DNA of 49,424 bases from assembly GCA_046734675.1 (NCBI GenBank), contig JBKPRU010000021.1, forward strand, positions 1 to 49,424, written 5' to 3'. Position numbers and translations under genes: made by a program. Below are positions 4,356 to 44,745 of this stretch, in pieces; position 1 is the first letter of the stretch, and each line of letters opens with the position of its first letter. Source of the DNA: Acidobacteriota bacterium (GTDB lineage: Bacteria; Acidobacteriota; Vicinamibacteria; Vicinamibacterales; 2-12-FULL-66-21). The notes under the pieces are model-generated. The model did not search any database. It had not been told where the DNA came from and was given only the letters and a program-made list of their open reading frames with translations.

Positions 4356-5555
4356 CTACTTGGATGCCCCTTTCAATTCCAGTTCCAATGCCTCTTCGAA
4401 GTATTGCGCCGGCAGCCCGCCCTTCAGCAGACGGCCATTAATAAAGAAGGTAGGCGTGGAAGTGACGCCCAGCACGGAGCCGGTCGACGCGTCCGTCTTC
4501 ACTTCCTGAATGGCTTTCGCGTACTGCGCGTCGAAATCTGTAATCCCACCGACAGTTTTGGCAGCGTCGCGGACCGTGGCGGGACTGAGCGTGCCCTGGT
4601 TGGTGAAGAACCAGGCGGTGAGCTTGTCGAAGGTCCCCTTCGACTGCGCCATCACCGCGGCGGCCGCCGCCTCGCACGCCGCCGGGTGCACCATCGTCGG
4701 CACCGACGAGTTGCACTGCGGGTTCAGCGGATAGTGCTTCATCAGGTACTTCACGCCGCGCGGCTCGTACTTCGCGAGGATCGATTCATACGCCTCGTAG
4801 GTCTGCTTGCACGGCGGGCACTGGTAGTCGTTGAACTTCACGACCAGCACCTTGGCGCCGTCGGCCGAATACGGCACCTGCACCTTCGGCTGCATCTCGT
4901 ACCAGCGCTGGAACTCGCTCCGCTGCTGCTCCGTGAGCGGCGCCGGCGCGGCGCCCGAGGCCGCGCTCTGTGACGCGTCGTGCGGGAAGAGCGCGACGGC
5001 CGATACCGCGCCCGCCAGGAAGAGCAGCGCGACGACAATCGCGAGCGGCGTCGTGACGAGCACGCGCAAATCGCGCGACGCGCGTCTCGGAAGACTGGTC
5101 ATAGGCAAGGAACTCGCTCCTCCGGAGATGATGAAGATGCCAATCACCGCGACGTAGGTCGCCACGCACAACGGGCACACCGCCTTGAGGATGAAGAAGG
5201 AGGCGTACGCGAGATACAGGACCACGGCGAGCGCGATCGTCGATGCCGCGAACACGTAGGCCGGCGCGCTGTCCGAAATACGGCTCTTCCCGCCCGCGCC
5301 CCAGACGAGGATCAGCACGAAGAGGAAGAAGACGAGGCCGCCGAGGGCGACCGGCACTCCGGCCAGCGATCCGTAGCGGCTCAGGTATGCCTGCGTGCAG
5401 CTGACGGTCGCATTGATGTCGCAGAAGCTCGTATAGGCCGGGTTCTTCAGCAGGTTGTAGTGCACGTAGGCCGACGCCGCGGACGCCAGCAGTCCGAGCA
5501 GCCCGAATCCGAGCAGAAGCCGTCGCGCGCGTGCTGACATCGGGAAAACCCTCAT
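4356..5555 (-). CDS. VKOR-domain / DsbA-like thioredoxin fusion (disulfide-bond-forming oxidoreductase)
   Basis: The N-terminal half has several TM helices with Cys pairs (FCDINATVSC, AVCPLC), typical of VKOR. The C-terminal half is a thioredoxin fold with CPPC (FNDYQCPPCKQ). An alternative start ATG at 5540 has a better GAGGG Shine-Dalgarno. Confidence 0.85.
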   Translation of the reverse strand: MRVFPMSARARRLLLGFGLLGLLASAASAYVHYNLLKNPAYTSFCDINATVSCTQAYLSRYGSLAGVPVALGGLVFFLFVLILVWGAGGKSRISDSAPAYVFAASTIALAVVLYLAYASFFILKAVCPLCVATYVAVIGIFIISGGASSLPMTSLPRRASRDLRVLVTTPLAIVVALLFLAGAVSAVALFPHDASQSAASGAAPAPLTEQQRSEFQRWYEMQPKVQVPYSADGAKVLVVKFNDYQCPPCKQTYEAYESILAKYEPRGVKYLMKHYPLNPQCNSSVPTMVHPAACEAAAAAVMAQSKGTFDKLTAWFFTNQGTLSPATVRDAAKTVGGITDFDAQYAKAIQEVKTDASTGSVLGVTSTPTFFINGRLLKGGLPAQYFEEALELELKGASK

Positions 5556-5558
5556 ATT

Positions 5559-6113
5559 CTACTTTATTTCCGTGCCTTTGCCGGGGTTCCCCGTCTCGGG
5601 CATCTTCTCGAGGTACGTCTCGGCGTCCTCGTAGAGCACGCGGTCCGCGTTGATCGCGAAGAAGCGCTCGCCGCTGATCCCCGGGGTTGCCGGATCGGCG
5701 GTCACCGCGTAGCCCTCCGCGACCGCCGTGCCGTTGCACGCGGGCGCGGCACCGTCGACTGGCTTCGCGGTCATTGCGAAGAGGTACCCGGATTTCTCGA
5801 ACTGATCCGCCGACGTCAGATCCGGGCTGAGGAACGCTTCGCCGCTCTGCGGCACCGGCTGCCCGAGTGCCGGCAGCGAGGCGGCGTACTTCTGGCTGCC
5901 GCACGTCTGCGCGAACTGCCACTGGGCCGCGGCAATCGAGCGCAGCGACGCGATGGCCGACGCTTCGTTGCCACGCGCGTGCATGTTGCGATAGGTCGCG
6001 AACGCAATGGCGAGGACGATGCCGATGATCGCGAGGACGATCATCAGCTCGATCAGCGTGAAGCCCTGCTGCGCGTCTCCTCCGCCTGAAGTCGGAAGCC
6101 GCGGGGCTTCCAA
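5559..6113 (-). CDS. type IV pilin-like protein (fourth paralogue); start uncertain
   Basis: ...DAQQ/GFTLIELMIVLAIIGIVLAIAFATYRNMHARGNEASAIASLRSIAAAQ matches the class III signal and N-terminal helix of the other three pilins, and it has two Cys. No ATG or GTG precedes the G/F cleavage site. The only candidate start is TTG at 6113, and the frame stays open upstream into the YfhO-like gene. Confidence 0.55.
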   Translation of the reverse strand: MEAPRLPTSGGGDAQQGFTLIELMIVLAIIGIVLAIAFATYRNMHARGNEASAIASLRSIAAAQWQFAQTCGSQKYAASLPALGQPVPQSGEAFLSPDLTSADQFEKSGYLFAMTAKPVDGAAPACNGTAVAEGYAVTADPATPGISGERFFAINADRVLYEDAETYLEKMPETGNPGKGTEIK

Positions 6114-8723
6114 CCGGCCGCTCCCCTCCGAGCTCCTGTAGCTTCCGCCTTCAGGCGGAAGTCTCCGCCGCGGCGCTCGCCAGACACTCATCGCCATCAA
6201 CAACAACGCTGTCACTGTCGTGATAGTTAGACCCGTGAACAGGTCGCGCGGTCTGAACCGGAACCGTATCACGTGGCGTCCCGGCGCGAGATGGACGGCG
6301 CGATACATGCCGTTCGCACGCGTCATCTCCGCGGCAGCGCCGTCGACCTCGACGCGCCACGACGGATCGTAGGAATCGCGCAGGACGAGGAACCCGTCGC
6401 GCTCCAGGCCGGCTTCGAGGACGACCCGGTTCTCGCCGTCCTCGACAAACCGCGCGAACGGCGGCACCGGCGCACCCGCGATTCCGGCGGCTGCCGGCAC
6501 GAACGGCACCCGCAGGTCATCGTCGGGTACCGTCGCATCGAACAGCGCACGCTGCTGCCATGCCGGGTCTTCGCCGGTTTTTGCCTTCGACGCGATGAAC
6601 ACGCGCGTCGCGTCCGGGTCGCAGTCGACGAGCCGCATCGACCAGTGGGGCACTGAAGCGATGGTATGCAGCCACGGGCGGGCGGCGTCCGGCAGCACGC
6701 ACCAGCGGACGCCGGAACGGCGCAGGAAAAGCTCGCGCTCGCCCGCCGTCGCGCGCTCGAAGCGGCGCACCAGCCCCTCGTACTCCGCCGGCCACAACAC
6801 CGGGAGATCGTAGGACAGCGCCTCGCGCACCTGCCACCCGGACGGCGCCATCGGCAGCTCCGCGTTCAACTCCATCCGCCCTTCGATCGCGGTCGGCTCG
6901 GCCGGGATCTCCCATTTCTTCGAGGCGTCGGGATCTTCCGCGTTCATGAACCCGCGCACCCGGCCGCCGATGTAGAGCCGCGAGTCCCCGGCGAGCGCCG
7001 TGTACCACTGCGGCGGCGTCAGCTTCGCCAGGTCCATGGTCAGGTTCAGATCGGCGTTGGTGACGACCAGGTCCGCGCACATCGCGGCAAGGAGCAGGTA
7101 TGCCGCCGCGTGCGCGCGCGAACCCGATGAGATCGCGATGGCCAGCAGCGTCGCGGCCGCGAGCAGCATCGCGGCGACGCGTGCCGCCAGCGGCGGCGCC
7201 ACGCGCAGCAGAAACGGCGTACCCGTCACCGGCTCCACGTGCACGCGTGTCGCCAGAGCGGCCACCGCGCGCTCCGCCCTGGCCGCCGCGACAATCGGCA
7301 GGGCAATCGCGACTCCGATCGCCATCGCGAGGACGACGCAGCCAAGCGCCACGAACTTGATGCGCCTCCGCTTACCCGCGTCTGCGAGCGCCGCCCAGCC
7401 GTCCGCCGCGAGCACCGCGACCGCAAACGTCGTCACGACGAGGTACTTCACCGGGAAGCGGAAGTACGTAAGCGGCGATAGCAGACGCCTTACCAGCGGG
7501 TAGAACGGCGTGTAGCCGCCCATCGCCGCCAGGAAGAAGAGGACGGCCAGCAGCGCCCAAACGACGTTTCGGCGCGGACGCGCGACCAGCCCGGTCGCCG
7601 CGAGCGCGAGCACGAGCGGCCCGACGTAGATGGAGTAATAGAACGGCTCGCGTCCGCTATTGAACGGCGCCATCCACGGCATGTCCGCAAGGAACGCGTC
7701 GTAGTAGTTGCCGAAGAGATGCGGCGCGACGACTTCGAGCGCGCCCAGCGGATGCAGCGACCAGAAATCCGGCGTCGCCATGTTGCCGCGATGCGCCTGC
7801 ACCCCTGCCATCATCGTCGGCCAGAGTTGCACGGCCGCGAGCAGCGCGCCGAGAAGCAAACCCGCCACGACCCATGCGGCGGCTGTCATGCCGGGTCTAA
7901 AGACCCGGCCTACGTGTGATCGAACTTGTCGGGTGTCGGCCGCATCTTTACTGGTGTAGCCCGAGTCTTTAGACCCGCCTTTCTCGACGTAGGCCGGGTC
8001 TTTTGACCCGGCGTTCTCGACGTAGGCCGGGTCTTTTGACCCGGCGTTCTCCACGTAGGCCGGGTCTTTAGACCCGGCAATCTGCCATCCGCGCCACGCC
8101 GCATACGCGACGGCGACGACGGCCGTCGACGCCAGCGTGACCGGCTCACCGCAGAGCGCCTGCAGTGCGACGGCGACGGCCAGCGTGGCGAGCCGCCGCA
8201 TCGACGGCGAGTCGATCAGCCGATCCGCCGCGAGCAGCACGAGCGGCATGGCGGCGACCGACCACGACAGGTTCGGCGCGTTGAGCATCGACACGATCGG
8301 TCCAGACAGTCCGAACGCGATCGCGCCGGTTGCTGACGCGGCGTCGCGGTGCGTGCGCCGCAGGAATGCGAACATGCCGAGGCTGGCAATCGGCAGGGGC
8401 AGCGCCACCCAGAGATTGAAGGACACGACCTCGGACGGGAGCAGCCGGATCAACGCCGTGATCGGCATGACCAGCTGGTTCAACGCGTCGGCGATCGCCG
8501 ACTGCCCCGCCGCGACGTAGGGATCCCACAGCGGGAACGACCCCGAGAAGACGGTGCGTCGAAACCAGAGGTGTCGCGACCAGAAGAAGAACGACAGGTC
8601 GCGGACGAAGAAGATCCTTGAGAGCGTGAAGAGGCCGGCGATCGGCACGATCGAGAGCGCGACGACGAGCCCGGCCCAACGCGAGCGGAGCAAACCGTGC
8701 GTTCGGGACGCCGGGTCGGTCAC
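5559..8723 (-). CDS. YfhO-family polytopic membrane protein, copy A (GT-C-like). The reading frame has no stop until the pilin stop at 5559.
   Basis: The GTG at 8723 overlaps the stop of copy B (GTGA). FFVRDLSFFFWSRHLWFRRTVFSGSFPLWDPYVAAGQS..., C-terminal VLRDSYDPSWRVEVDGAAAEMTRANGMYRAVHLAPGRHVIRFRFRP. It is colinear with copy B throughout. The expected end (after ...SVWRAPRRR, about 6160) has no stop codon. Confidence 0.7.
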   Translation of the reverse strand: MTDPASRTHGLLRSRWAGLVVALSIVPIAGLFTLSRIFFVRDLSFFFWSRHLWFRRTVFSGSFPLWDPYVAAGQSAIADALNQLVMPITALIRLLPSEVVSFNLWVALPLPIASLGMFAFLRRTHRDAASATGAIAFGLSGPIVSMLNAPNLSWSVAAMPLVLLAADRLIDSPSMRRLATLAVAVALQALCGEPVTLASTAVVAVAYAAWRGWQIAGSKDPAYVENAGSKDPAYVENAGSKDPAYVEKGGSKDSGYTSKDAADTRQVRSHVGRVFRPGMTAAAWVVAGLLLGALLAAVQLWPTMMAGVQAHRGNMATPDFWSLHPLGALEVVAPHLFGNYYDAFLADMPWMAPFNSGREPFYYSIYVGPLVLALAATGLVARPRRNVVWALLAVLFFLAAMGGYTPFYPLVRRLLSPLTYFRFPVKYLVVTTFAVAVLAADGWAALADAGKRRRIKFVALGCVVLAMAIGVAIALPIVAAARAERAVAALATRVHVEPVTGTPFLLRVAPPLAARVAAMLLAAATLLAIAISSGSRAHAAAYLLLAAMCADLVVTNADLNLTMDLAKLTPPQWYTALAGDSRLYIGGRVRGFMNAEDPDASKKWEIPAEPTAIEGRMELNAELPMAPSGWQVREALSYDLPVLWPAEYEGLVRRFERATAGERELFLRRSGVRWCVLPDAARPWLHTIASVPHWSMRLVDCDPDATRVFIASKAKTGEDPAWQQRALFDATVPDDDLRVPFVPAAAGIAGAPVPPFARFVEDGENRVVLEAGLERDGFLVLRDSYDPSWRVEVDGAAAEMTRANGMYRAVHLAPGRHVIRFRFRPRDLFTGLTITTVTALLLMAMSVWRAPRRRLPPEGGSYRSSEGSGRLEAPRLPTSGGGDAQQGFTLIELMIVLAIIGIVLAIAFATYRNMHARGNEASAIASLRSIAAAQWQFAQTCGSQKYAASLPALGQPVPQSGEAFLSPDLTSADQFEKSGYLFAMTAKPVDGAAPACNGTAVAEGYAVTADPATPGISGERFFAINADRVLYEDAETYLEKMPETGNPGKGTEIK
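6077..6161. repeat. Family B (REP-like) hairpins occupying the junction between YfhO-like A and the pilin domain
   Basis: GTAG + CTTCCGCC-TTCA-GGCGGAAG at 6138-6161. A degenerate CTCCGCCTGAAGTCGGAAG and GGAAGCC-GCGG-GGCTTCC lie at 6077-6110. Confidence 0.8.
7890..8078. repeat. Family B REP array inside the YfhO-A coding frame: four direct GTAG+palindrome units at exact 33-nt spacing (7956, 7989, 8022, 8055) plus one inverted unit (7890-7913)
   Basis: GTAGGCCGGGTCTTTTGACCCGGC repeated. On the coding strand it translates as GSKDPAYVENA x3 without a stop. This segment has no counterpart in paralogue B. Confidence 0.9.
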
Positions 8724-11167
8724 GCGGCCGCTGTCGTGGCGGTCACCCGCGCCCGGCGCAGCCGCCGGTCGACCAGGCACCACGCGACCAGCGCGAGGGC
8801 CGCCGCGGCGGTAATCGACGCGCCGAGATATACGAGGCGGGGCTCGTAGGTGAAGGTGACGACGTGATTGCCGCGTGTCAGGTGGACGGCGCGGAAGGTG
8901 CCGTTGGCGCGCATGAGCGGCGCTGCCATGCCGTCGACGTCGACGGTCCAGTCCGGATCGTAGCTGTCGAACAGCGCGAGATAGCCGTCGGCCGGCAGAC
9001 CCGCACGAACGACGACGCGGTCGTGCGCGTCCTGGATGATGGCTGCAGATGCAGCGACCGCAGGGCCCTCGAGGCCCGCGGCCGCAGGGGGCCGCTCGCT
9101 GACGAGCACGCCCGTCCGCGGATCGAACCGCTGCTGGAATAGGCCCTCGATCTGCCACGGAATGTCCGGGCCGATCAGCGCGTCGGGCACGACCGTCACG
9201 CGCGTGGCGTCGGGGTGACATTCGTAGAGCTGCATCTGGGGAATGCCGCGCAGTGACGCGAGCGGCTTCGCGCCGGAATACGGCGGCGTCGGCAGCACGC
9301 AGAAACGAGTACCGATACGCTGCAGGACCCTCAGCCGCTCTTCGCGCGTGGCGCCGCGGAACCGTGTGATCAACCTGGCGTAGTCGAGCGGCCAGAGCAG
9401 CGGGAGATCGAACGAGATCGATTCGCGCACCTGCCATCCCGACGGCGAGTACATCAACTCGTTCACCGCGAGATACCGCGCGTCGGTCGGCGACGTGGCA
9501 TCCGGAGGACTCACCCACTTCGGCGCATCGGGATCCAGCGGATTGATCCAGCCTTCGAGACGGCCCCCCATGTAGAGGCGCTCCCCCGGATGCGCGTTCA
9601 TCACGTCCACCCACGCCGGCGGCCCCAGCGCCGCCGCGTTCATCGTCGGATTCACGTCGCTGTTGGACGCAGCCAGATCGACGACGAGGGCGACGCCGAG
9701 CACCGCGCGCGCGAACCGGCGCTCGCGGCGCGTCGAGATCGCGATGACCACGAGCAGACTCGTCGCCATCAGTTTGAGAAACAACGTGGTCAGCAGCGGC
9801 CGCGCACGGAAGATCAGGTATTCCGCGCCCTGGATGGGGAACGGCACGTGCGCGATCTCCGCGAGCCGATAGAAGACACGCGCGGGATGCGCCGGCGCGA
9901 TGAGCAACCACGCGACGACGACGTAGGCGCACACTCCGACAGCCGCCGCGAGCGCGGCGACGATGACCCCGCGCCGCCACCGAATCTCGCCGTCGAGAAT
10001 CGCCTGCCACCCGTACGCCGTCAGCGCGGCGAGCGCGAACGACCCGAGCGAGAGGTACTTCACGGGGAACCGGAACGCGCTCAGGCCCGGGACGACCTGC
10101 TGCAGTATCGGATAAATCGGTGTGTACGATCCGAGCGCCGCGACGACGGCAGCAAGTAGTGCCGTCGCCCAGAATGCGTGCTGCCGCCGACGAATCGTGG
10201 TTGCGAGTGCCGCGACCACCACGGCGACCACACCGACGTACATCGTGTAATAGAACGGCTCGCGCCCGCTGTTCAGCGCGACCATCCATGGGAGCTCGCG
10301 CAGATTCGAGCTGAAATAATCACCGTAGAAGTGCGGCACGAACAGCTCGAGCAGCGCGAGCGGGTGGAAGGCCCAGAAATCGTCGCCCGTCATCAGGCTG
10401 CGCACCGAGTGGCGGCTGGCGCCAAGCAGAGGCGCGAACTGGATGGCCGCGAGCACGAGCCCGAGGACGACGGCGGCGAGGGTCGTCGCCAGCGCGCGCG
10501 TGCGAGCGCGCCAGTCCGGAGCCGCGACGACGAGCGTGTAGGCCGCAGCCAGTGCGAGCGTGCCGGCGAGACTTACCGGCTCCCCCGCCAGTGCCTGCAT
10601 CGCGACGATCGCGGCGAGGGCAGCCGCCGTCGCCCCGGCCGGCCGGGTGAGCACGCGATCGATGGCCCAGAACACGTACGGAACCGCCGCGATCGACCAG
10701 GACAGGTTCGGAAAGTTCGTCGTCGAGACGATCGGGCCCGACAGCGCGAATGTGAGCGCGCCAATCGACGCCGGGACGTCGCGTACGTGCCGCCGCAGGA
10801 ACAGCCATGCGCCGAGGCAGGCGATCGGGACGGGCAGCGCGACCCAGAGATTCCAGGCGAGGATCTGCGGAAGCAGCAGCCGCAAGGCAAGCGTCGGCGG
10901 CAGGAACAACTGGTACAACGCGTCGCCCGCGGCCGACTGTCCCGACGCGGGGAACGGATCCCACCAGGGCCACTGCGCGGACGCAACCGTGCTCCGGAGC
11001 CACAGAAAGCGCGAATGAAACGCGAGCGTGAGATCGCGAACGAAGAACATCCGCGACGTCGTGAAGACGCCGGCGACGGGCACGAACGCGACGGCGGTGA
11101 CGATCAGGCCCCACGTCCACCCGGGCCAGGCACCGGGTGAGAAACGGGAGTGACGTTGTCGCAGCAT
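8720..11167 (-). CDS. YfhO-family polytopic membrane protein, copy B (GT-C-like)
   Basis: MLRQRHSRFSPGAWPGWTWGLIVTAVAFVPVAGVFTTSRMFFVRDLTLAFHSRFLWLRSTVASAQWPWWDPFPASGQSA..., C-terminal LFDSYDPDWTVDVDGMAAPLMRANGTFRAVHLTRGNHVVTFTYEP. I prefer ATG 11167, because the track start 11227 would place the pilA terminator hairpin inside the gene. Confidence 0.8.
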   Translation of the reverse strand: MLRQRHSRFSPGAWPGWTWGLIVTAVAFVPVAGVFTTSRMFFVRDLTLAFHSRFLWLRSTVASAQWPWWDPFPASGQSAAGDALYQLFLPPTLALRLLLPQILAWNLWVALPVPIACLGAWLFLRRHVRDVPASIGALTFALSGPIVSTTNFPNLSWSIAAVPYVFWAIDRVLTRPAGATAAALAAIVAMQALAGEPVSLAGTLALAAAYTLVVAAPDWRARTRALATTLAAVVLGLVLAAIQFAPLLGASRHSVRSLMTGDDFWAFHPLALLELFVPHFYGDYFSSNLRELPWMVALNSGREPFYYTMYVGVVAVVVAALATTIRRRQHAFWATALLAAVVAALGSYTPIYPILQQVVPGLSAFRFPVKYLSLGSFALAALTAYGWQAILDGEIRWRRGVIVAALAAAVGVCAYVVVAWLLIAPAHPARVFYRLAEIAHVPFPIQGAEYLIFRARPLLTTLFLKLMATSLLVVIAISTRRERRFARAVLGVALVVDLAASNSDVNPTMNAAALGPPAWVDVMNAHPGERLYMGGRLEGWINPLDPDAPKWVSPPDATSPTDARYLAVNELMYSPSGWQVRESISFDLPLLWPLDYARLITRFRGATREERLRVLQRIGTRFCVLPTPPYSGAKPLASLRGIPQMQLYECHPDATRVTVVPDALIGPDIPWQIEGLFQQRFDPRTGVLVSERPPAAAGLEGPAVAASAAIIQDAHDRVVVRAGLPADGYLALFDSYDPDWTVDVDGMAAPLMRANGTFRAVHLTRGNHVVTFTYEPRLVYLGASITAAAALALVAWCLVDRRLRRARVTATTAAA

Positions 11168-11196
11168 CAGGCGACGTGCAGGGTACCGGAGCACAT

Positions 11197-11230
11197 ATGA
11201 AAAGGCGAGGGATGTCCGAGCGGACATCCC
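11197..11230 (-). terminator. candidate intrinsic terminator after pilin 1
   Basis: Perfect 9-bp stem GGGATGTCC-GCTC-GGACATCCC (11209-11230), followed on the minus strand by TCGCCTTTTCAT. Confidence 0.55.
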
Positions 11231-11258: not shown

Positions 11259-11783
11259 TTACTGAATCGCCGACGCGCCCGACGGGGTCGCCGTGTCGCT
11301 CATGCCGCTGAGCGTCGCCGTGCCCTGCCAGATCGTGCCCGTGGTGTTGGAGCCGAAGAAGCGCGTGCCCGTCGAGCTCGACGAGGGATCCGCCCAGGAG
11401 TGATAGCCGGTCGAGAGCGACGAAGACGCCGCACCGTTGCACGCGGTTGCCGTGCCGCCGCCCGCGCCGTCCATGCCGACCAGGTAGCCGCTCTTCGACG
11501 CCGTCGCGGCCGCGCCGAGGTCCGGGCTGATGAACGCCGAGCCGCCCGAGGGACCGCTGCCCAGAATGTCGAGGGTCTTCGCGTACTGGCCGTTCGCGCA
11601 GCTCGCCGAGAACGTCGACTGCGCGCTGCTGATGGCGCGCAGCGAACCAATCGCTGACGCCTCGTTACCGGAGATGCGCGCCCGCAGCAGACCCGGGACC
11701 GCGATCGCCGCGATGATGCCGATGATCGCCACGACGATCAACAGCTCAATCAGCGTGAAGCCTTTCTGATTACGAACCTTCAT
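11259..11783 (-). CDS. pilA: type IV major pilin, paralogue 1
   Basis: MKVRNQK/GFTLIELLIVVAIIGIIAAIAVPGLL... AGGAG lies 9 nt upstream of ATG 11783. Two Cys and a Ser/Thr-rich C-terminal third. Confidence 0.9.
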   Translation of the reverse strand: MKVRNQKGFTLIELLIVVAIIGIIAAIAVPGLLRARISGNEASAIGSLRAISSAQSTFSASCANGQYAKTLDILGSGPSGGSAFISPDLGAAATASKSGYLVGMDGAGGGTATACNGAASSSLSTGYHSWADPSSSSTGTRFFGSNTTGTIWQGTATLSGMSDTATPSGASAIQ

Positions 11784-12085: not shown

Positions 12086-12610
12086 TTACTGAATCGCCGA
12101 CGCGCCCGACGGCGTGGCCGTGTCGCTCATGCCGCTGAGCGTCGCGGTGCCCTGCCAGATCGTGCCCGTGGTGTTCGAGCCGAAGTAGCGGGTGCCCGTC
12201 GAGCTCGATGAGGGATCCGCCCAGGAGTGATAGCCGGTCGAGAGCGACGAAGACGCCGCGCCGTTGCAGGCGGTCGCCGTGCCGCCGCCCGCGCCGTCCA
12301 TGCCCACGCGGTAGCCGCTCTTCGTCGCGGTCGCCGCTGCGCCGAGGTCCGGGCTGATGAACGCCGAGCCGCCCGAGGGGCCCGTGCCGAGCACGTCCAT
12401 CGTCTTCGCGTACTGGCCGTTCGCGCAGCTCGCCGAGAAGGTCGACTGCGCGCTGCTGATGGCGCGCAGCGAACCGATCGCCGACGCCTCGTTGCCGGAG
12501 ATACGCGCCCGGAGCAGGCCCGGGACCGCAATCGCCGCGATGATGCCGATGATCGCCACGACGATCAGCAGCTCGATCAGGGTGAAACCTTTCTGGTTAC
12601 GCATCTTCAT
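12086..12610 (-). CDS. pilA: type IV major pilin, paralogue 2 (near-identical tandem copy of paralogue 1)
   Basis: MKMRNQK/GFTLIELL... It shows 7 amino-acid differences from paralogue 1 over 174 aa in my alignment. GGAG lies upstream of ATG 12610. Confidence 0.9.
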   Translation of the reverse strand: MKMRNQKGFTLIELLIVVAIIGIIAAIAVPGLLRARISGNEASAIGSLRAISSAQSTFSASCANGQYAKTMDVLGTGPSGGSAFISPDLGAAATATKSGYRVGMDGAGGGTATACNGAASSSLSTGYHSWADPSSSSTGTRYFGSNTTGTIWQGTATLSGMSDTATPSGASAIQ

Positions 12611-12852: not shown

Positions 12853-13362
12853 TCACTGAATCGGGATGCCGGTCGACGGCGTGGCCGTGTCGCTCATGGC
12901 GTTCAGCGAGGACGAGGCCTGCCAGATCGTGCTCGTGGTGTTCGTCCCGAAATAGCGGACGCCGCTGTTCTCGGAGACCGGGTCGGCCCAGGCGTGGTAG
13001 CCGTTCGCGAGCGCCGTGGTGCCGTTGCATGCGGGCGATCCGGACGCGCCTGCGCCGGCGAGCGAAATCGAATACCCGCTCTTGACGGCGGTTGGCGCGC
13101 CGCCGAGATCGACGCTGAGGAACGGCTCGGTCCCGGACGGTCCGGTGCCGAGGATGTCGAGCGTCGCCGCATACAGGCCGTTCGCGCAGCTCCTCGAGAA
13201 CGTCGCCTGCGCGCTGCCGATCGCGCGGAGCGAGGCGATCGCGGACGCCTCGTTGCCGGAAATGCGCGCCCGCAGCAGCCCCGGCGTCGCAATGGCCGCA
13301 ATCGCCGCGATAATCGCCACGACGATGAGCAGTTCGACGAGCGTGAATCCGTTCTTCTTCAT
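12853..13362 (-). CDS. type IV pilin, paralogue 3 (divergent)
   Basis: [52 protein letters not shown]... Two Cys. ATG 13362 overlaps the pilR stop (ATGA). Confidence 0.88.
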   Translation of the reverse strand: MKKNGFTLVELLIVVAIIAAIAAIATPGLLRARISGNEASAIASLRAIGSAQATFSRSCANGLYAATLDILGTGPSGTEPFLSVDLGGAPTAVKSGYSISLAGAGASGSPACNGTTALANGYHAWADPVSENSGVRYFGTNTTSTIWQASSSLNAMSDTATPSTGIPIQ

Positions 13363-14795
13363 TTGAGGTTGTACTTTTTCATGTAGTAGCGGAAGGATCG
13401 GAAGCTCATACCGAGCAGCTCCGCTGCCTTCACCTTCACGCCACCCGATCGGCGCAGCGCCTCCGCGATGTACTCGCGCTCGAGATGCTGCACATGCTGT
13501 TCGAGGTCGAAGCCGGTCTCAGGCAGCGCCGATGGTGCGGGCGCGCTCCCACCCGCCGCGGCCGGCGCCGCCACCGCCGCCGTCGTGCCACGCACCGCTT
13601 CCGGCAGGCTCTCGGGCTGGATCGTCGACGCCCGTTCCAGCGCCACCGCACGTTCGATCGCGTTTTCGAGCTCGCGGACGTTGCCCGGCCAGGCGTACGA
13701 GGTCAGCGCCGCCATCGCCGTCGCCGTGATGCCGGTGATGTTCTTCTTCATCTGCGGCGCGTACTTCGTGACGAAGTGCTCGGCGAGCCCGACCACGTCG
13801 TCGCCGCGCTCGCGCAGCGGCGGGAGCCGCACCGGGATCACGTTGATGCGGTAGAAGAGGTCTTCGCGGAACTGCCCCTCCGCCACCATCTTGGCCAGGT
13901 CGCGGTTGGTCGCCGCGATGATCCGGATGTCGGCCTCGATCTCCTCGGTGCCGCCGACGCGCCGGAACTTGCGCTCCTGCAGGACGCGCAGCACCTTGAC
14001 CTGCAGCATCGGGCTCATCTCGCCGATTTCGTCGAGGAAGATGGTCCCTTTGTCGGCGACCTCGATCAGCCCTTTCTTGTTGTTGTCGGCGCCGGTGAAC
14101 GCGCCCCGCACGTGCCCGAACAGCTCCGAGTCGAGGAGCGTTTCCGTCAGCGCGCCGCAATTGACGGCGACGAACGGCCGTTCGCTGCGCGGCGATCGCA
14201 CGTGAATCGCGCGCGCGATCAGCTCCTTGCCCGTGCCGGATTCACCGGTGATCAGAATCGTGCTGCCGGTCGCCGCGACGGTCTCGACCAGCTCGAACAC
14301 CTGAATCATCGCGCTGCTGCTGCCGACGATGTTCGAGAAGTGATGCGCGGTGTGCATCGCGCGCTTCAGCAACACGTTCTCCTGCTGCAGGCGACGGCGA
14401 TCCAGCTCCTTGCGGATGCGGAACTTGAGCACCTCGGTGTTGAACGGCTTCTCGACGTAGTCGTTGACGCCGAGCTCCTCGACGCCCTTGATCAGGTCCG
14501 GCGATCCATAGGCGGTGATCATGATGGCGATCACCGCGGGGTTGACGCTGCGCGCGTGCCGGAGCACCTGCAGGCCGTCGACGTCCGGCATCCGCGCGTC
14601 GGATACGACCAGATCGAACGGGCGCTGGTTCAGGAACTCCAGCGCGCGGCGGCCGTTCTCGGCGATCGCGACATCGTGTCCCTCGCGCCGCAGGAGGATC
14701 GCCAGCATCTCGCGCATCGACCGCTCGTCGTCGACGATGAGGATGCGCGCGGCGGGCGCCGCGACCGGATCGACGGTCTGTACGTCAATAGCCAT
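13359..14795 (-). CDS. pilR: sigma54-dependent response regulator (receiver, AAA+ and Fis-type HTH domains)
   Basis: [22 protein letters not shown].., [21 protein letters not shown], ...[20 protein letters not shown]. The track ORF extends spuriously to 15092. Confidence 0.9.
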
Positions 14796-14802
14796 AACGT
14801 TG

Positions 14803-16473
14803 TCAGCCGGAGACGGCAGCCGCGACCGCGCCCACCGGCAGCACCACCTCCACCGTGGTTCCCATGCCCTTGTTCGACGACACGCGAACCTCGCCGCCGT
14901 AGTCGCTCGCGATGCGATGCACGATCGACAGACCGAGGCCTGTGCCCTTCGTAAACGTGCCGCGGAACGGCTGGAAGATGCCGTCGATCTCTTCCGGCGC
15001 GATGCCGACGCCGTCGTCACGTACCCCAATGACCACGTGCTCCGGTTCCTTGGCGGTCTTCTCGTGACGGTGGACCGACAGCCGCAGCACACCGCCGTTG
15101 GGCATCGCCCGCAGACCGTTGGTGGCCAGGTTCCAGACGATCTGGCGCACCTGCGCTTCGTCGGCGCGGTAGATCACCCGTTCCTGCGGCGCATCGACGA
15201 CGATCGAATGGCCGTCGACCAGCTCCGCGTTGTTCTCGAGCAGCGTCGCCGTGTCGGTCAGCACGCGCCCAACGTCCGTGTCGGCCAGCGCCGCGCGCTG
15301 CGGCCGCGCGTAGGCGAGGAAGCTTCGGATCGTGTCGTTCAACCGCTCCGACTCGCGCAGCACGATGTCCATCAGCTGCGACTGCTCCGGCGTCAATGGC
15401 AGCTCGTCGCGCAGGATCTGAATTGAGCCGGCCATCGACGCGAGCGGGTTGCGGATCTCGTGCGCGATGCCGGCGGCCATCTCGCCAACCGCCGCGAGCC
15501 GCTGTTGCACGCGCGCCTCGCGGTCCTGCTTCCTGGCTTCAGTCACGTCCTGGAACGTGAACAGGAACCCCGAATTGCCGCTCGGTGTGACGAGCGGCGC
15601 GGCGCTGATCCCGAGCTCGATCTGCCGTCCGTCCGCGCGCGTGTAGCCGTACTCGAGCCGCGGCAGCACCGGACGGCCGTCCTCTCGGTTGAAGAGCCCG
15701 ACATACGGCGACGGCAGCTGCAGCACCGCCATCATCGATTGTCCGAGCGCCTCGGCCGCCGTCATGCCGGTGATGCTCTCGCCGGCGCGGTTGAACGTCA
15801 GCACCCGTCCCGTCATGTCGCACGTCGTCAAGCCGCTCTGGAGGCTGTCGATCACGTGCTGGTTGAACGCCTGCAGGTCCGCCAGCTGCGTCGACGTTTC
15901 TTCGAGCTGCTCGCCGGTGCGGCGTAACCCTTCCGCGAGGTACCCGCTCAGCGCCGCGACCGCGAGGAACCCGAACACGTTCAGGCCCACCGTGTAAATC
16001 GCCACGCGCATCGGCGGCAGCGTCTCCGGCGCCATCCCGAACGGCAGCACCATGCCCGCGTACTGCGCGATCACCAGCCCGACGTAGATCAGACAGCTGA
16101 GCGCGCTCACCATCAGGCCGCCGCGCCACGACTGCACGGTGCTGGCCGCGATGATCGGCAGCGTGTAGAGCGATGAGAAGTAGCTCGCGACCCCGCCGGT
16201 CAGATGCACCATCGCGGAAACGACGAGCGCGTCGCACGCGACCTGCACGTCGATCAGCCACGGATGCCGATCGACGTAGCGCAGCGTCGCCGCCCAGAAC
16301 GCCGTCAGCCCGTAGGTCAGGCCAATCAGGAAAAAGAACGGATCGATCGGCAGCGCGCCCGGCGACTTGAACTGAATCAGGATCGCCGACCCGAGCAGCA
16401 TCGTGATCACACCGGCGCGCCCGCCAATGAGCCACAGCAGCTTGTGCCGCACGCCGGTCAACGTTGCTTGCAT
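14803..16473 (-). CDS. pilS: membrane sensor histidine kinase (multi-TM N-terminus, PAS, HisKA, HATPase)
   Basis: AAGIAHEIRNPLASMAGSIQIL H-box, and the G-box GTGLGLSIVHRIASDYGG. It lies directly upstream of pilR. Confidence 0.88.
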   Translation of the reverse strand: MQATLTGVRHKLLWLIGGRAGVITMLLGSAILIQFKSPGALPIDPFFFLIGLTYGLTAFWAATLRYVDRHPWLIDVQVACDALVVSAMVHLTGGVASYFSSLYTLPIIAASTVQSWRGGLMVSALSCLIYVGLVIAQYAGMVLPFGMAPETLPPMRVAIYTVGLNVFGFLAVAALSGYLAEGLRRTGEQLEETSTQLADLQAFNQHVIDSLQSGLTTCDMTGRVLTFNRAGESITGMTAAEALGQSMMAVLQLPSPYVGLFNREDGRPVLPRLEYGYTRADGRQIELGISAAPLVTPSGNSGFLFTFQDVTEARKQDREARVQQRLAAVGEMAAGIAHEIRNPLASMAGSIQILRDELPLTPEQSQLMDIVLRESERLNDTIRSFLAYARPQRAALADTDVGRVLTDTATLLENNAELVDGHSIVVDAPQERVIYRADEAQVRQIVWNLATNGLRAMPNGGVLRLSVHRHEKTAKEPEHVVIGVRDDGVGIAPEEIDGIFQPFRGTFTKGTGLGLSIVHRIASDYGGEVRVSSNKGMGTTVEVVLPVGAVAAAVSG

Positions 16474-16486
16474 CTTGGTTTTTCAC

Positions 16487-16538
16487 GTAGGCCGGGTCTT
16501 TGGACCCGGCGTGTGGCGGGCCTGAAGACCCGCCCTAC
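16487..16538. repeat. Family B REP pair in inverted orientation (BIME-like)
   Basis: GTAGGCCGGGTCTTTGGACCCGGC (16487-16510) and GGCGGGCCTGAAGACCCGCCCTAC (16515-16538). Confidence 0.9.
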
Positions 16539-16582
16539 ACCTGTGTTTTAGGACGCGCTTCGCGGCCTTCCGTCTTCTTTTC

Positions 16583-16688
16583 TCAATGCGCGTGGGGCCC
16601 CACCCCCACGCGCTTTACGCGCTTCTCGGCGGCCTTCTGTCTTTGTCGTTGTCTTCTGTCTTCCGCCTTCTGTCTTCTGTCTTCTCTT
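16583..16688 (-). repeat. Family A element, copy A2 (truncated) with a CTGTCTT/CCGTCTT simple-repeat tail
   Basis: Core hairpin at 16588-16613. The tail GTCTTCTGTCTTCCGCCTTCTGTCTTCTGTCTTC abuts the pilC stop. Confidence 0.85.
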
Positions 16689-17906
16689 CTACGTCAGCTT
16701 GCTGATCAGGTCGAAGATCGGCATGTACATCGCGATGACGATGCCGCCGACGACGCCGCCGAGGACCGCGATCATGATTGGTTCCATCAGGGTCAGCAGG
16801 CCGGCGACCGCCGTGTCCACTTCTTCCTCGTAGAAGTCCGCGATCTTGGCGAGCATCGCGTCGAGCGCGCCCGTCGTCTCACCGACGTTGATCATCTGCA
16901 CGACCATCGACGGGAAGACGTTGGTCTCGCGCAGCGGCGCCGACACCGTTTCACCGCGCTCGATGCTGGCGCGCGTCTTCTGAATGGCTTCCTCGATGAT
17001 GGCGTTGCCGGCAGTGCGCGCCGTGATGTCGAGACCGTCGAGAATCGGCACGCCCGACGACAGCAGCGTCGAGAGCGTGCGGCAGAACCGTGCGACCGCG
17101 ATCTTGCGCAGGATCATGCCGAGGACGGGCGCCTTCAGCGTCAGGCCGTCAATCGTGTAACGGCCGGCTGGCGTCGCGTAGTACTGCTTCAGCGCATAAC
17201 CGATGCCGCCCAGGCCGACGAGGATGAACGGCCCGTACGACAGGAGGCCGTTGCTCGCCGCGATGACGACGCGGGTCGGGAGCGGCAGCTCGGCGCCGAG
17301 GCCGGCGAAGAGCTGTGCGAAGGTCGGGATAACCTTCCACAGAATCGCCGCAACGACGACGGTGGCGATACAGATGACCGCGATCGGGTAAATCATCGCG
17401 GACTTGACCTGCCCCTTCAGCTTGACGCTCTTCTCGATGTAGACCGCGAGCCGCTTCAGGATCGTGTCGAGAATACCGCCGGCCTCGCCCGCCGCAATCA
17501 TGTTCGCGTAGAGCGCGTCGAACGATTTCGGGTGCTTCTTCATGGCGTCGGCGAGCGCGGCGCCCGACTCGACGTCGGCGCGCACCGACAGGATCGCTTC
17601 GGCGAACCCCTTGTGCGGCTCCTGCTTGCCGAGGATGTCGAGGCACTGGACGAGCGGGAGACCGGCGTCGATCATGACGGAGAACTGCCGCGTGAAGATC
17701 GCCAGATTTTTCGACGGCGCCGCCTTGCCGGTGGCCTTCTTGGCTTTCTCCTTGGGCGGCGCCGCCACCTTCGCCGGGTCGATCCGCGTCACCTGGATCT
17801 GCTCGCGGCGGAGCGCCGCGATCGCCGCATCCATGGTGTCGGCAATGCGCTCCCCCGTCACCGTCTGGCCCGCTCGAGTACGTCCGCTATACGCGAAAGT
17901 AGGCAT
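16689..17906 (-). CDS. pilC: type IV pilus inner-membrane platform protein
   Basis: 405 aa, with two GspF-type repeats (…FSVMIDAGLPLVQCL…, …LSTLLSSGVPILDGL…). Confidence 0.92.
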   Translation of the reverse strand: MPTFAYSGRTRAGQTVTGERIADTMDAAIAALRREQIQVTRIDPAKVAAPPKEKAKKATGKAAPSKNLAIFTRQFSVMIDAGLPLVQCLDILGKQEPHKGFAEAILSVRADVESGAALADAMKKHPKSFDALYANMIAAGEAGGILDTILKRLAVYIEKSVKLKGQVKSAMIYPIAVICIATVVVAAILWKVIPTFAQLFAGLGAELPLPTRVVIAASNGLLSYGPFILVGLGGIGYALKQYYATPAGRYTIDGLTLKAPVLGMILRKIAVARFCRTLSTLLSSGVPILDGLDITARTAGNAIIEEAIQKTRASIERGETVSAPLRETNVFPSMVVQMINVGETTGALDAMLAKIADFYEEEVDTAVAGLLTLMEPIMIAVLGGVVGGIVIAMYMPIFDLISKLT

Positions 17907-17996: not shown

Positions 17997-19124
17997 TCAC
18001 CGGCCGACCGGACGCGCGGGTCCCGGCCGCTGCGCCGTGCCCGCGCCGGCGACCACGCCGGCGCCGCGCGCAATCATCTGTTCCAGTTCGTCCTTCAGCG
18101 ACGACGCGCCCATCGCCGTCTCGAGCGCGATCAGCCGTTTGTGATACAGCGTCGCGAGGCACTGGTTCATCGTCTGCATCCCGAGCTTTTCCTGGCCGGT
18201 CTGCATCGTCGAGTAGATCTGGTGCACCTTGTCGTCGCGGATCAGATTCCGGATCGCCGGGTTGGGGACCATGATCTCGAGCGCGACCACGCGTCCCTTG
18301 CCGTCCATCCGCGGCAGCAGCGCCTGACAGACGATCCCTTCGAGCACGAGCGACAGCTGGGTGCGGATCTGCCCCTGCTGGTGCGCCGGGAAGACGTCGA
18401 TGATGCGGTTGATCGTCTGCGCCGCGGAGTTGGTATGCAGCGTCGCGAACGTCAAGTGCCCCGTTTCCGCGATGCGCAGCGCCGACTCGATCGTCTCGAG
18501 GTCGCGCAACTCGCCGATGAGGACGATGTCGGGGTCTTCACGAAGGGCGGCGCGCAGCGCGTTGGCGAAGCCTTGCGTGTCCTGGTGCACCTCGCGCTGA
18601 TTCACGAGGCAGCCCTTGTGTTGATGCACGAACTCGATCGGGTCCTCGATGGTGAGGATGTGCTCGTGGCGCTCGGTGTTGATCTTGTCGATCATCGCCG
18701 CGAGCGTCGTCGACTTGCCCGAGCCGGTCGGCCCGGTGACGAGCACGAGGCCGCGCGGACGCTCGGCGAGATTGGCGAGGACCGCCGGCAGCCCCAGGTC
18801 GTTGAAGTTCTTGATCTGCTCCGGGATCACCCGGTAGACCGCCGCAACCGCGCCGCGCTGATTGAAGACGTTGCAGCGGAAGCGCGCGATGCCACGGATG
18901 CCGAAGGAGAAATCGAGCTCCTGCGACTCCTCGAACCGCTTCTTCTGCTGATCGGTGAGGACGCTGTAGGCGAGCGCCTTCGTCGCGGCCGCATCGAGCG
19001 GCGGCAGATCCAGCGGCTGCAGATGCCCGTGGATCCGGATCTGCGGCGGCGTGTTGGTCGTAATGTGCAGGTCCGATCCGTTGTTCTGAACGAGCGTTGC
19101 TAACAGTTCGGGCAGCGTAGCCAT
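17997..19124 (-). CDS. pilT: twitching-motility retraction ATPase
   Basis: MATLPELLATLVQNNGSDLHITTNTPPQIRIHG..., Walker A GPTGSGKST, and AIRNLIRDDKVHQIYS, characteristic of PilT. Confidence 0.93.
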   Translation of the reverse strand: MATLPELLATLVQNNGSDLHITTNTPPQIRIHGHLQPLDLPPLDAAATKALAYSVLTDQQKKRFEESQELDFSFGIRGIARFRCNVFNQRGAVAAVYRVIPEQIKNFNDLGLPAVLANLAERPRGLVLVTGPTGSGKSTTLAAMIDKINTERHEHILTIEDPIEFVHQHKGCLVNQREVHQDTQGFANALRAALREDPDIVLIGELRDLETIESALRIAETGHLTFATLHTNSAAQTINRIIDVFPAHQQGQIRTQLSLVLEGIVCQALLPRMDGKGRVVALEIMVPNPAIRNLIRDDKVHQIYSTMQTGQEKLGMQTMNQCLATLYHKRLIALETAMGASSLKDELEQMIARGAGVVAGAGTAQRPGPARPVGR

Positions 19125-19300
19125 GTGATCCTTTTTTCAATGCGCGTGGGGCCCCATCCCCACGCGCTTCACGCGCTTCGCGCGACGCCCTTCGTCCCTC
19201 GACGTCGCTCGGGACGACCCTGAGCTGTCGAAGGGTCGGGCTTGCCGCCGCGTCGCGGCGGCCGTCTGTCTTCCGCCTTCCGTCTTCCGTCTTCCGTCTT
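19125..19300 (-). repeat. Family A element, copy A3 (long form with a nested 44-nt insert and a CCGTCTT x3 tail)
   Basis: Core hairpin at 19142-19167, nested insert at 19195-19238, GCCGCCGCGTCGCGGCGGC at 19243-19261. It fills the whole pilB-pilT spacer. Confidence 0.9.
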
Positions 19301-21220: not shown

Positions 21221-21403
21221 GCCGGGTCTAAAGACCCGGCCTATGTGGAGAACCGATGGCGCCTCCAAGAGGCGCCCTACCGTCGGCCGATTCGCGTAAG
21301 TGGAGCAGTGGCGGTAGGTCGCACCCGGCCTGCGCGGAGCACCGGCGGTAGGGCGCACCTTCAGGTGCGCCTCCATAACGGCGCCTCTAAAGAGGCGCCC
21401 TAC
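21221..21403. repeat. cluster of four clear Family B REP units (plus one degenerate) in mixed orientation
   Basis: Units at 21221-21244, 21258-21280, 21348-21371 and 21380-21403, plus a degenerate unit near 21314-21345. Confidence 0.9.
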
Positions 21404-24636: not shown

Positions 24637-24815
24637 AGCGCTGCGCGGCGCGAGGCTACGGAGTGGGTCTCGTAGCATTCGAAGGCCGCCGCGAAGCGGC
24701 GGAAAGCCCCGACCCTTCGACAGGCTCAGGGTCGTCCCGAGCGACGTCGAGAGACGAAGGGCGTCGCGCGAAGCGCGTCAAGCGCGTGGGGGTGGGGCCC
24801 CACGCGCACTGAAAA
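24637..24815 (+). repeat. Family A element, copy A4 (long form; on the plus strand, i.e. again sense to the flanking genes)
   Basis: GCCGCCGCGAAGCGGCGG at 24686-24703, CGCGCGAAGCGCG, core hairpin at 24782-24807, then ACTGAAAA and the ATG at 24816. Confidence 0.9.
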
Positions 24816-26042
<1,227 letters not shown>

Positions 26043-38675: not shown

Positions 38676-38683
38676 AGATGCTT

Positions 38684-38733
38684 GTCAGCTACCAGCTACC
38701 AGCTACCAGCTACCCGCTGGTGGCTGGCGGCTA
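38684..38733. repeat. Family C hairpin, copy C2
   Basis: GTCAG(CTACCAG)x3CTACC-CGC-TGGTGGCTGGCGGCTAC. Confidence 0.88.
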
Positions 38734-39105: not shown

Positions 39106-39107
39106 AA

Positions 39108-39187: not shown

Positions 39188-39193
39188 GCCGTT

Positions 39194-44111: not shown

Positions 44112-44131
44112 ATCGACTATTCCGTTCAGTC

Positions 44132-44184: not shown

Positions 44185-44194
44185 GTGCTGAGGC

Positions 44195-44734: not shown

Positions 44735-44745
44735 GGGATATAGCT

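Follow-up and report, generated by a model that had tools for sequence, protein, structure and literature searches.

An in-frame fusion of a GT-C glycosyltransferase and a type IV pilin in soil Acidobacteriota, a candidate polyprotein substrate of prepilin peptidase

Introduction

Type IV pilins are synthesised with a short N-terminal leader that is removed by the prepilin peptidase PilD. Here we describe a gene in which a type IV pilin follows a membrane glycosyltransferase in the same reading frame. The gene lies in a minus-strand type IV pilus locus of a soil acidobacterium (Vicinamibacterales; GenBank assembly GCA_046734675.1, contig JBKPRU010000021.1), and the 49,424 nucleotides (nt) of this stretch, with a G+C content of 66%, are referred to as the window. 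The pilin shares with the canonical type IVa prepilins, such as Pseudomonas aeruginosa PilA and Dichelobacter FimA, the class III core, the pilin fold, two cysteines and a locus containing pilB, pilC, pilD, pilT, pilS and pilR. In contrast, canonical prepilins carry a free hydrophilic leader of 6-26 amino acids (aa; PMC4471445), whereas here the leader position is occupied by an 887-residue polytopic enzyme and the pilin mostly lacks a start codon of its own.

In fold and gene adjacency, the enzyme resembles TfpW of P. aeruginosa group IV, a GT-C pilin glycosyltransferase with a large periplasmic C-terminal domain that is encoded beside pilA (bioRxiv 10.1101/2020.04.19.049825). Both have a GT-C fold and adjoin pilin genes, and Ser/Thr-rich pilins are encoded in the same operon. 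However, TfpW is made as a polypeptide of its own from a gene downstream of pilA, whereas the enzyme described here is encoded upstream of the pilin and covalently joined to it. In systems of the TfpW type, Ser/Thr residues of the adjacent pilin are glycosylated; the fused pilin itself is not Ser/Thr-rich. Within the YfhO family, YfhO and GtlB act on lipoteichoic acid, while PgfM1, PgfM2 and PgtC2 O-glycosylate Ser/Thr-rich regions outside the membrane (PMC5836110; bioRxiv 10.1101/2024.05.05.592596). As with PgfM1 and PgfM2, two YfhO-type paralogues lie side by side in the window, and the YfhO profile PF09586 is matched above its gathering cut-off. Unlike Bacillus subtilis YfhO, Listeria GtlB and the streptococcal enzymes, however, the protein comes from a diderm acidobacterial host and its membrane domain matches the profile weakly. 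The literature searched contains no description of a YfhO member carrying a pilin. Pilins combined with a functional module in one polypeptide have been described for PilB and PilC of Streptococcus sanguinis (PMC8179133). There, the module is C-terminal and enters the fibre, whereas the module described here is N-terminal to the cleavage site, membrane-bound and would be removed.

Results and discussion

The coding sequence of the fusion runs on the minus strand from a GTG at 8723-8721 to a TAG stop at 5561-5559 and comprises 1,054 codons plus the stop (113.5 kDa). Its start overlaps the TGA (8722-8720) of the preceding gene, an unfused paralogue termed copy B, as GTGA; the glycosyltransferase half of the fusion is accordingly called copy A. 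On the minus strand, the frame extends without a stop from 10289 down to 5559 and is thus open for 522 codons upstream of the true start, a 5' extension that is an artefact of the 66% G+C content. Two Pfam domains are matched in the same protein, namely YfhO (PF09586) at aa 776-835 with 47.4 bits against a cut-off of 28.5, and N_methyl (PF07963) at aa 884-908 with 37.1 bits, the corresponding TIGR02532 model scoring 34.2 bits. The initial annotation of this DNA had proposed that a YfhO-like protein is fused in frame to a pilin, and the uninterrupted frame from 8723 to 5559 with both Pfam domains bears this out. It had also remarked on the missing stop codon at the position corresponding to the end of copy B. 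Copy B ends 16 aa after its last transmembrane (TM) helix, while copy A runs past its last TM helix via WRAPRRRLPPEGGSYRSSEGSGRLEAPRLPTSGGGDAQQ/RAPRRRLPPEGGSYRSSEGSGRLEAPRLPTSGGGDAQQ to G887/F888-TLIE892-LMIVLAIIG, the complete prepilin site that the annotation had placed after the linker and that PF07963 and TIGR02532 both match. Its further statement that the pilin lacks an ATG or GTG of its own, a TTG at 6113 being the sole candidate start, holds for the region between the last TM helix and Gly-1.

The predicted prepilin-peptidase site, Gly887/Phe888, is encoded at 6060-6065 on the minus strand (GGC 6065-6063, TTC 6062-6060), with Glu+5 at 6050-6048. It reads QQG/FTLIELMIVLAIIGIVLAIAF and comprises Gly-1, Phe+1 and Glu+5 followed by about 21 hydrophobic residues. 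Cleavage would occur after residue 887 of 1,054, behind a polytopic GT-C enzyme, the hydrophilic part of this 'leader' being its last 39 residues. Taken alone, a stop-free linker of 39 codons is unremarkable at 66% G+C (P(no stop) ~0.40), so the significance of the fusion rests on comparative data and not on the open linker alone.

For this comparison, the last 479 residues of the fusion protein served as bait in a protein database and gave 107 matches, 51 of which show a YfhO-like C terminus followed by the pilin motif. The full-length fused protein P0109 (995 aa) represents a 50%-identity cluster in a library of 1.84 billion proteins. DNA collections, consisting of the GTDB species representatives and soil metagenomes, were scanned with an alignment restricted to the C-terminal domain of the glycosyltransferase, which excludes the pilin and thereby removes bait bias. 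In the GTDB species representatives, all 14 intact loci of the copy A type are fused in frame (51-78% identity; metagenome-assembled genomes (MAGs) labelled Vicinamibacterales or Acidobacteria gp6); besides these, the scan yielded one frameshifted locus in a long-contig MAG and three loci of the copy B type (36-37% identity), which are unfused. The soil metagenomes contributed about 39 loci, of which 29 are fused and 10, of the copy A type, are unfused. Pooling the Vicinamibacterales/Acidobacteria-gp6 MAGs and soil metagenomes gave 55 orthologous loci. The initial annotation had suggested looking for a stop codon and an ATG at this junction in related genomes: 44 of the 55 junctions are stop-free and fused in frame, and in the 11 unfused loci the pilin lies in another frame.

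The 37 unique fused junctions are all in frame and contain no stop codon (0 stops), and their linkers have no shared sequence. Measured from a conserved RFxYRPR anchor, Gly-1 follows at 20 different distances, ranging from 37 to 96 residues, and the shortest linkers leave about 5-8 residues after the TM helix. A net positive charge is found in 33 of 36 linkers, and many are of low complexity or derived from repeats (NPENPENP, PEPEPEPE, GSTGSGST, FSRFSRFS, PPTSNLEPPTS). Compared with the one third expected, the proportion of in-frame loci (44/55) corresponds to P ~1e-12 under naive independence, and some 19 length changes are in-frame versus about 7 out-of-frame (P ~4e-5). The gene order of pilins, copy B, fusion, VKOR-DsbA, ABC transporter and PilD is kept in the fused loci.

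In all 11 split loci the pilin lies in a different frame from the glycosyltransferase, and 10 of the 11 have a start codon 5-11 codons before Gly-1 that adjoins or overlaps the glycosyltransferase stop, giving leaders such as MENQRG/F, MAKERG/F, MGSKGSSG/F and MNPSNRSTPENG/F. The exception is L049, in which the sole in-frame start is an ATG 29 codons upstream. A neighbour-joining tree of the short proteins from 46 DNA-verified loci, rooted at the midpoint and evaluated by Fitch parsimony, has a fused root and at least 7 state switches, and a larger protein tree shows the same interleaving. By parsimony, the fused state is thus probably ancestral. The close kin L013 (fused, 6900-7000) and L020 (split, 8380-8460) have a pilin dN (nonsynonymous divergence) of 0.02 and differ by a frameshift in an NPLNP repeat. 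For this pair, and also for L039 and L029, we observed that the state differs by frameshifts in Pro/Asn-rich linker repeats (NPLNPLNP, PEPEPE). Such proline/asparagine-rich repeats may act as a mutational switch between a one-gene and a two-gene arrangement. Altogether, the comparison of orthologous loci indicates that the frame of 1,054 codons represents a genuine gene of ancient conservation. In the database protein P0129 (416 aa), a single ORF contains two pilin copies, with an internal ...DSRG/FTLIEL site before the second; its sequence seems riddled with frameshifts, and P0129 may be an assembly artefact and not another kind of internal class III signal.

The mature product of the pilin half would be a type IVa pilin of 167 aa and 17.5 kDa, encoded at 5562-6062 on the minus strand (stop 5559-5561) and here called pilin 4. 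It aligns with residues 1-45 of the P. aeruginosa PAK pilin, starting exactly at Phe1. A separate AlphaFold2 (AF2) model of the pilin has a predicted local distance difference test score (pLDDT) of 91.7 and shows a long alpha-1 helix (H6-56) and a beta-sheet of 5-6 strands; its best Foldseek match is Dichelobacter FimA (3sok, E = 1.9e-4, probability 1.00). Gly-1, Phe+1, Thr+2, Leu+3, Glu+5, Leu+6 and the two cysteines, Cys941 and Cys996 in the window, are invariant in 51 of 51 aligned sequences. Arg occupies position -2 in 17 of 36 junctions and Glu or Asp occupies position -3 in 17 of 36, a pattern also seen in unfused leaders. The median ratios of nonsynonymous to synonymous divergence (dN/dS) for the pilin are 0.25 between fused loci, 0.22 between split loci and 0.23 for mixed pairs, and the window pilin compared with its nearest relative, L002, gives 0.13. 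These values indicate that the pilin is under the same purifying selection whether fused or split. They contradict the suggestion of the initial annotation that the pilin is silenced. For the pair of the window and L004, the pilin dN was 0.89, probably due to a mis-paired pilin in L004, and this value was not used.

The same data bear on the explanation that the fusion is an accident or an artefact, produced by insertion of a repetitive extragenic palindromic (REP) element or by a sequencing or assembly frameshift, and carrying a dead pilin. REP-like hairpins do occupy the junction in the window, and the assemblies of the database relatives L016, L063 and P0040 are visibly frameshifted. However, 44 loci that were sampled, sequenced and assembled independently share this fusion, the majority without a REP element; the fused assemblies stem from differing projects and pipelines and include scaffolds labelled 'curated' and contigs of 0.7-4 Mb. 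A fused ancestor, the purifying selection on the pilin (dN/dS 0.13 against the nearest relative) and its invariant motifs are likewise at odds with a dead pilin, and we regard an accidental origin as very improbable.

REP elements are short imperfect palindromes that occur in many dispersed copies and are normally intergenic. In the window, hairpins of this type lie within the linker, or 'leader tail', of the fusion (aa 849-887, RAPRRRLPPEGGSYRSSEGSGRLEAPRLPTSGGGDAQQG; 6063-6179, minus strand), which ends in the invariant Gly-1, lacks conservation in the alignment and has a pLDDT below 50 at aa 860-889. A perfect palindrome of the REP type, CTTCCGCCTGAAGGCGGAAG, is located by exact match at 6142-6161 and translated as LPPEGGS. 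An inverted degenerate copy with 2 mismatches at 6079-6098, translated as LPTSGGG, pairs with it in the mRNA, and a further small hairpin lies at 6094-6111. The linker RNA folds as one long stem of -75.4 kcal/mol (z = -2.5). The hairpin pattern has 3 matches in the window against 0.03 expected, all at the linker site, and a degenerate 'GTAG + hairpin' search of the window did not place the linker hairpin in a family spread over the window. An exact 18-mer of the linker hairpin was found in 8 loci on other contigs or MAGs; in L020 and L021, for which gene calls were in hand, it lies inside the orthologous glycosyltransferase open reading frame (ORF). The initial assignment of the linker hairpins to a 'Family B' of REP elements thus holds in part: the hairpins are present and recur in 8 other loci, while within the window this element is found at the linker only.

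A second element is dispersed in the window. A 33-nt REP hairpin (GTAGGCCGGGTCTTTAGACCCGGC) forms an in-frame tandem array inside the glycosyltransferase at 7947-8080 on the minus strand (Tandem Repeats Finder period 33, 3.7 copies), with a further copy at 7890-7916. The array is translated as a peptide repeat occurring 3-4 times in a disordered loop at aa about 222-268. The same element occurs at 16478-16541, 21221-21253 and 44123-44187 (repeat families D6, D13 and D14). In P0011 and P0015, we also observed REP-derived inserts of the PPEGGSY type in a variable loop of the aligned membrane domain, to which the loop with the 33-nt array in the window is comparable.

The initial annotation had proposed that REP insertion either erased a stop/start junction or created the fusion, which is not borne out by the relatives: the same fusion is present in 44 of 55 loci, most without REP, and the root is fused. 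The REP hairpins did not create the fusion, since the junctions of most relatives lack such a hairpin and certain linkers measure no more than ~5-8 residues, as in the REP-free ...AASRRRERAG/FTLIEL. When the junction DNA was aligned to that of the four nearest relatives, no clean REP insertion could be delimited, the linker being too divergent at 78% protein identity. Judged from the orthologous junctions, the linker hairpins are carried along in frame in the hypervariable linker of a fusion that predates them, and selection appears to filter such insertions for frame and absence of stops.

The linker also contains the only candidate for an internal start, TTG 6113-6111, at -16 codons and with the Shine-Dalgarno-like GGAGGGGAG (6129-6121) upstream of it at a distance of 7 nt (6111-6129 in total, minus strand, between the hairpin arms); farther upstream, the next start codons are two ATGs within the TM helix, at -42 and -44. 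The pilin might therefore be made by internal initiation, with the missing stop incidental and the fusion protein a minor by-product. The Shine-Dalgarno-like sequence and its spacer are comparable to the GGAG of the neighbouring genes for pilins 2 and 3, the 16-aa leader that would result (MEAPRLPTSGGGDAQQG) is within the known range of 6-26 aa (PMC4471445), and open frames come cheaply at 66% G+C, as the value of ~0.40 for 39 codons illustrates. On the other hand, the arms of the -75 kcal/mol hairpin enclose both the TTG and its Shine-Dalgarno-like sequence, and internal initiation would not keep linkers of 20 lengths in frame and stop-free. Moreover, a canonical start (ATG, GTG or TTG) at -3 to -15 codons is present at 3 of 37 fused junctions, with an ATG at -2 in the L036/L063 junction type. 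The nearest start in fused loci usually falls within the TM helix ahead of the linker; in L014, 44 codons contain no start at all. In the closest relative, L002 (78% identity), there is none nearer than 29 codons upstream, again inside the TM helix. A scan of 5400-6600 for sigma-70-like promoters and terminators found none in the linker, sigma-54 and other promoter types being outside the scan, and hence gave no sign of a separate pilin transcription unit. Of the initial proposal of internal initiation, the possibility of a start at TTG 6113 in this genome stands, but it does not extend to a general mechanism. We consider internal initiation as the source of the pilin unlikely in the window and much less likely still for the family as a whole, while it may add to the proposed polyprotein route in this one genome.

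The glycosyltransferase half, copy A, is assigned on the basis of Pfam, NCBIfam, AF2 and Foldseek. Its body (aa 1-825; 6249-8723, minus strand) consists of a polytopic membrane domain with ~14 TM helices followed by a soluble, beta-rich C-terminal domain of ~270 aa. An AF2 model of the whole fusion, built with 74 aligned homologues, has a mean pLDDT of 83 and a predicted template modelling score (pTM) of 0.79; values below 50 at aa 229-268 and in the linker at aa 860-889 indicate two disordered stretches. Foldseek matches in the PDB are headed exclusively by GT-C enzymes (AftD with E = 5e-7, ArnT, STT3/OST, AftA, AglB, PglB and EmbA/B; probability ≥0.9). A sequence search of the PDB with the glycosyltransferase part gave no match, so that the fold search alone was informative. 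The last ~60 positions of the YfhO profile match strongly and the membrane domain weakly (E = 0.0055), and NCBIfam gave weak C-terminal matches to streptococcal PgfM1 and PgfM2. GT-C enzymes carry a conserved acidic catalytic residue in the first extracytoplasmic loop and take the sugar from a polyprenyl-phosphate donor; in this loop, after TM1, copy A, copy B and P0109 share an FFVRD/FYVRD motif of putative catalytic function. From these fold and profile matches, copy A is best described as a YfhO-family GT-C glycosyltransferase. Pfam scans of selected window ORFs did not find a GT-A polyprenyl-phosphate sugar synthase or a GtrA flippase. Copy B (8720-11227, minus strand; 835 aa) is likewise GT-C/YfhO-like and has 41% identity to copy A over the longest aligned segment.

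The soluble C-terminal domain of GT-C enzymes is extracytoplasmic. The last helix of copy A (aa 826-848; 6180-6248, minus strand), which is present in the AF2 model and coincides with a hydropathy peak at aa 829-847, is therefore predicted to return from the periplasm to the cytoplasm. The sequence WRAPRRR directly after this helix agrees with the positive-inside rule. This topology is based on the AF2 model and GT-C homology, the Kyte-Doolittle count of TM helices being overlapping and ambiguous. With a basic tail, a disordered linker, the G/F site and an N-in pilin helix, the modelled fusion appears topologically coherent, as initially suggested.

Based on this model and on the comparison of loci, we consider it probable that the fusion is a natural polyprotein cut by prepilin peptidase at Gly887/Phe888, and propose the following hypothetical sequence of events, for which topology, cleavage by PilD and pilus incorporation are inferred: (i) during co-translational insertion, the last glycosyltransferase helix would cross the membrane from outside to inside, leaving the basic linker in the cytoplasm; (ii) the pilin alpha-1N helix would then cross from inside to outside and place the pilin head in the periplasm; (iii) the neighbouring VKOR-DsbA protein would oxidise the two conserved cysteines; (iv) the PilD of the locus would cut after Gly887 at the cytoplasmic face and methylate Phe888, yielding a 17.5-kDa pilin with N-methyl-Phe for the pilus machinery and a 96-kDa glycosyltransferase. 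According to this scenario, the glycosyltransferase would act as an 887-residue 'leader peptide' and the pilin would need neither a ribosome-binding site nor a start codon of its own. Release of the pilin by PilD from a giant leader, already suggested in the initial annotation, is the reading with the best support. The enzyme could supply membrane targeting and a 1:1 stoichiometry, and possibly the modification or hand-over of the nascent pilin in cis. Lineages would switch between the fused and the split state by +/-1 frameshifts in the linker. Since cleavage would yield the same two products as the split genes, the proposal accounts for the free toggling between both states, the loss of start codons in fused lineages and the maintenance of the frame. 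We lean slightly towards the more general conclusion that prepilin peptidase here serves as a polyprotein-processing protease with its site at residue 887 of a protein with ~15 TM helices, acting on a start-less pilin with a glycosyltransferase as the longest known 'leader'.

Several points weigh against this proposal. To our knowledge, no prepilin peptidase has been shown to cut a site behind a polytopic membrane protein. The prepilin leaders described so far measure 6-26 aa (PMC4471445). With the shortest linkers, which leave ~5-8 residues between two TM helices, access of PilD may be sterically difficult, and in this genome TTG 6113 with its Shine-Dalgarno-like sequence could give rise to a separately initiated prepilin with a 16-aa leader. 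The support consists of sequence comparison and predicted structure, and all comparison sequences are MAG or metagenome contigs. The state tree is limited in quality by neighbour-joining on short proteins and by the midpoint root, and the in-frame bias is possibly inflated by repeat units that are multiples of three (NPENPE, PEPEPE, GSTGSG).

Alternatively, the fusion may stay uncut, with the pilin module as a permanent additional TM helix and periplasmic domain of the glycosyltransferase, which might dock the enzyme on the pilus assembly platform or on pilin substrates via alpha-1 contacts. The conserved reading frame, the proximity of the GT-C enzyme to Ser/Thr-rich, substrate-like pilins and the very short linkers, which might hinder PilD, are compatible with this idea. 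A precedent is offered by a separate family whose members have a homologous pilin head anchored after a different set of TM helices: P0174, P0180, P0188, P0214, P0227 and P0237 have 297-360 aa and contain about four TM helices followed by a TM helix and the pilin-like head, with an N-terminal Zn-ribbon in some members and the TM motifs LAVLHFLGA...GLWxLKPYGR...KPGVKVLFS. However, this Zn-ribbon/4-TM family has lost G/FTLIE, including Gly-1, Phe+1 and Glu+5, and the three members scanned, P0188, P0214 and P0227, give no N_methyl match, whereas in the YfhO-pilin fusion Gly-1, Phe+1 and Glu+5 are kept in 51 of 51 sequences and positions -2 and -3 resemble those of leaders. The Zn-ribbon/4-TM proteins are presumably never cleaved and provide a natural negative control for the fusion. 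Furthermore, the linker shows no constraint on length or sequence, and a covalent tether is not required, because 11 loci encode the pilin separately (in 10 of these with a leader of ≤12 residues) and the state has switched at least 7 times. A permanently uncut fusion is thus, in our judgement, improbable.

If cleavage at Gly887 occurs, the substrate range of prepilin peptidase would widen to a leader that is a whole polytopic enzyme, and a pilin could be made without a ribosome-binding site of its own. The repeated changes between the fused and the split arrangement would then amount to a natural experiment indicating that the length and identity of the leader are immaterial to PilD. Fused and split variants of one orthologue offer a ready-made system for studying what PilD needs upstream of Gly-1. 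The literature searched, with most subscription journals outside the search, contains no description of a YfhO-pilin or giant-leader architecture. What appears to be new is a type IV pilin with a GT-C glycosyltransferase leader that is conserved across a soil acidobacterial order. Annotation currently gives these genes no label other than 'prepilin-type N-terminal cleavage/methylation domain-containing protein', or gene callers divide them. In the Acidobacteriota, a soil phylum that is abundant and has received little study, the fusion physically ties a GT-C glycosyltransferase of the YfhO type to the formation of pili and by analogy points to glycosylation of pilins. In addition, the linker and the loop array show that REP-type and low-complexity repeats persist, translated, in unconstrained protein loops.

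Genomic context

The genes of the pilus locus follow one another on the same strand in the order PilB, PilT, PilC, PilS, PilR, three pilins, copy B, the fusion, VKOR-DsbA, ABC-2 transporter, the ORF at 1681-2538 and PilD. All are encoded on the minus strand, with Pfam assignments for PilB (19301-21109), PilT (17997-19124), PilC (16689-17906), PilS (14803-16473) and the PilR ORF (13359-15092). PilD, a prepilin peptidase/N-methyltransferase with matches to A24_N_bact and Peptidase_A24, is encoded at 901-1680 and would have 259 aa if it starts at GTG 1680. Its position is the same in L021, L022 and most long loci. Between PilD and the ABC-2 permease lies the minus-strand ORF 1681-2538, which is in the same frame as PilD with no stop between them, giving a 545-aa ORF. 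It has no Pfam match; the equivalent in L021 and L022, a gene of 274 aa, is called separately and overlaps pilD by 4 nt.

A VKOR-thioredoxin/DsbA fusion gene assigned by Pfam (4356-5555, minus strand) starts 4 nt after the stop of the fused pilin. In 58 related loci, VKOR-DsbA directly follows the fused or split pilin, and is itself followed by the ABC-2 transporter pair, the ORF and PilD. VKOR-DsbA is a likely disulfide-forming partner of the two-Cys pilin, and the arrangement suggests a disulfide-forming module dedicated to two-Cys pilins.

The three other pilins of the locus, pilin 1 (12853-13362), pilin 2 (12086-12610) and pilin 3 (11259-11783), all on the minus strand, have their own starts and leaders of 5-8 residues (MKxRNQKG/F or MKKNG/F). 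In the pilin 2 and pilin 3 genes, GGAG is located ~9 nt upstream of the ATG. Ser and Thr make up 29-37% of the last 70 aa in pilins 1-3 versus 11% in the fused pilin 4. Pilins 1-3 could serve as alternative major pilins and are candidates for glycosylation. From the analogy to TfpW and PgfM1/PgtC2, we infer that the two GT-C paralogues may glycosylate these Ser/Thr-rich pilins. The genes of pilins 2 and 3 are 91-93% identical in DNA over ~300 nt, with a spacing of 827 nt.

The window contains further repeats. Repeats of a second family, 60-100 nt long with AATGCGCGTGGGGCCCCACCCCCACGCGC at their centre and distinct from the GTAG-hairpin REPs, occur in both orientations at 784-870, 16575-16638, 19126-19225, 24724-24823 and 39513-39602, with up to 94% identity over 100 nt. 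In addition, long imperfect palindromes are present at 38682-39189, 44737-44829, 45262-45312 and 46381-46458, where clusters of CAGCTAC/CAGCTGC with a periodicity of 7 nt precede their own complement (GCTGGTGGCTGG).

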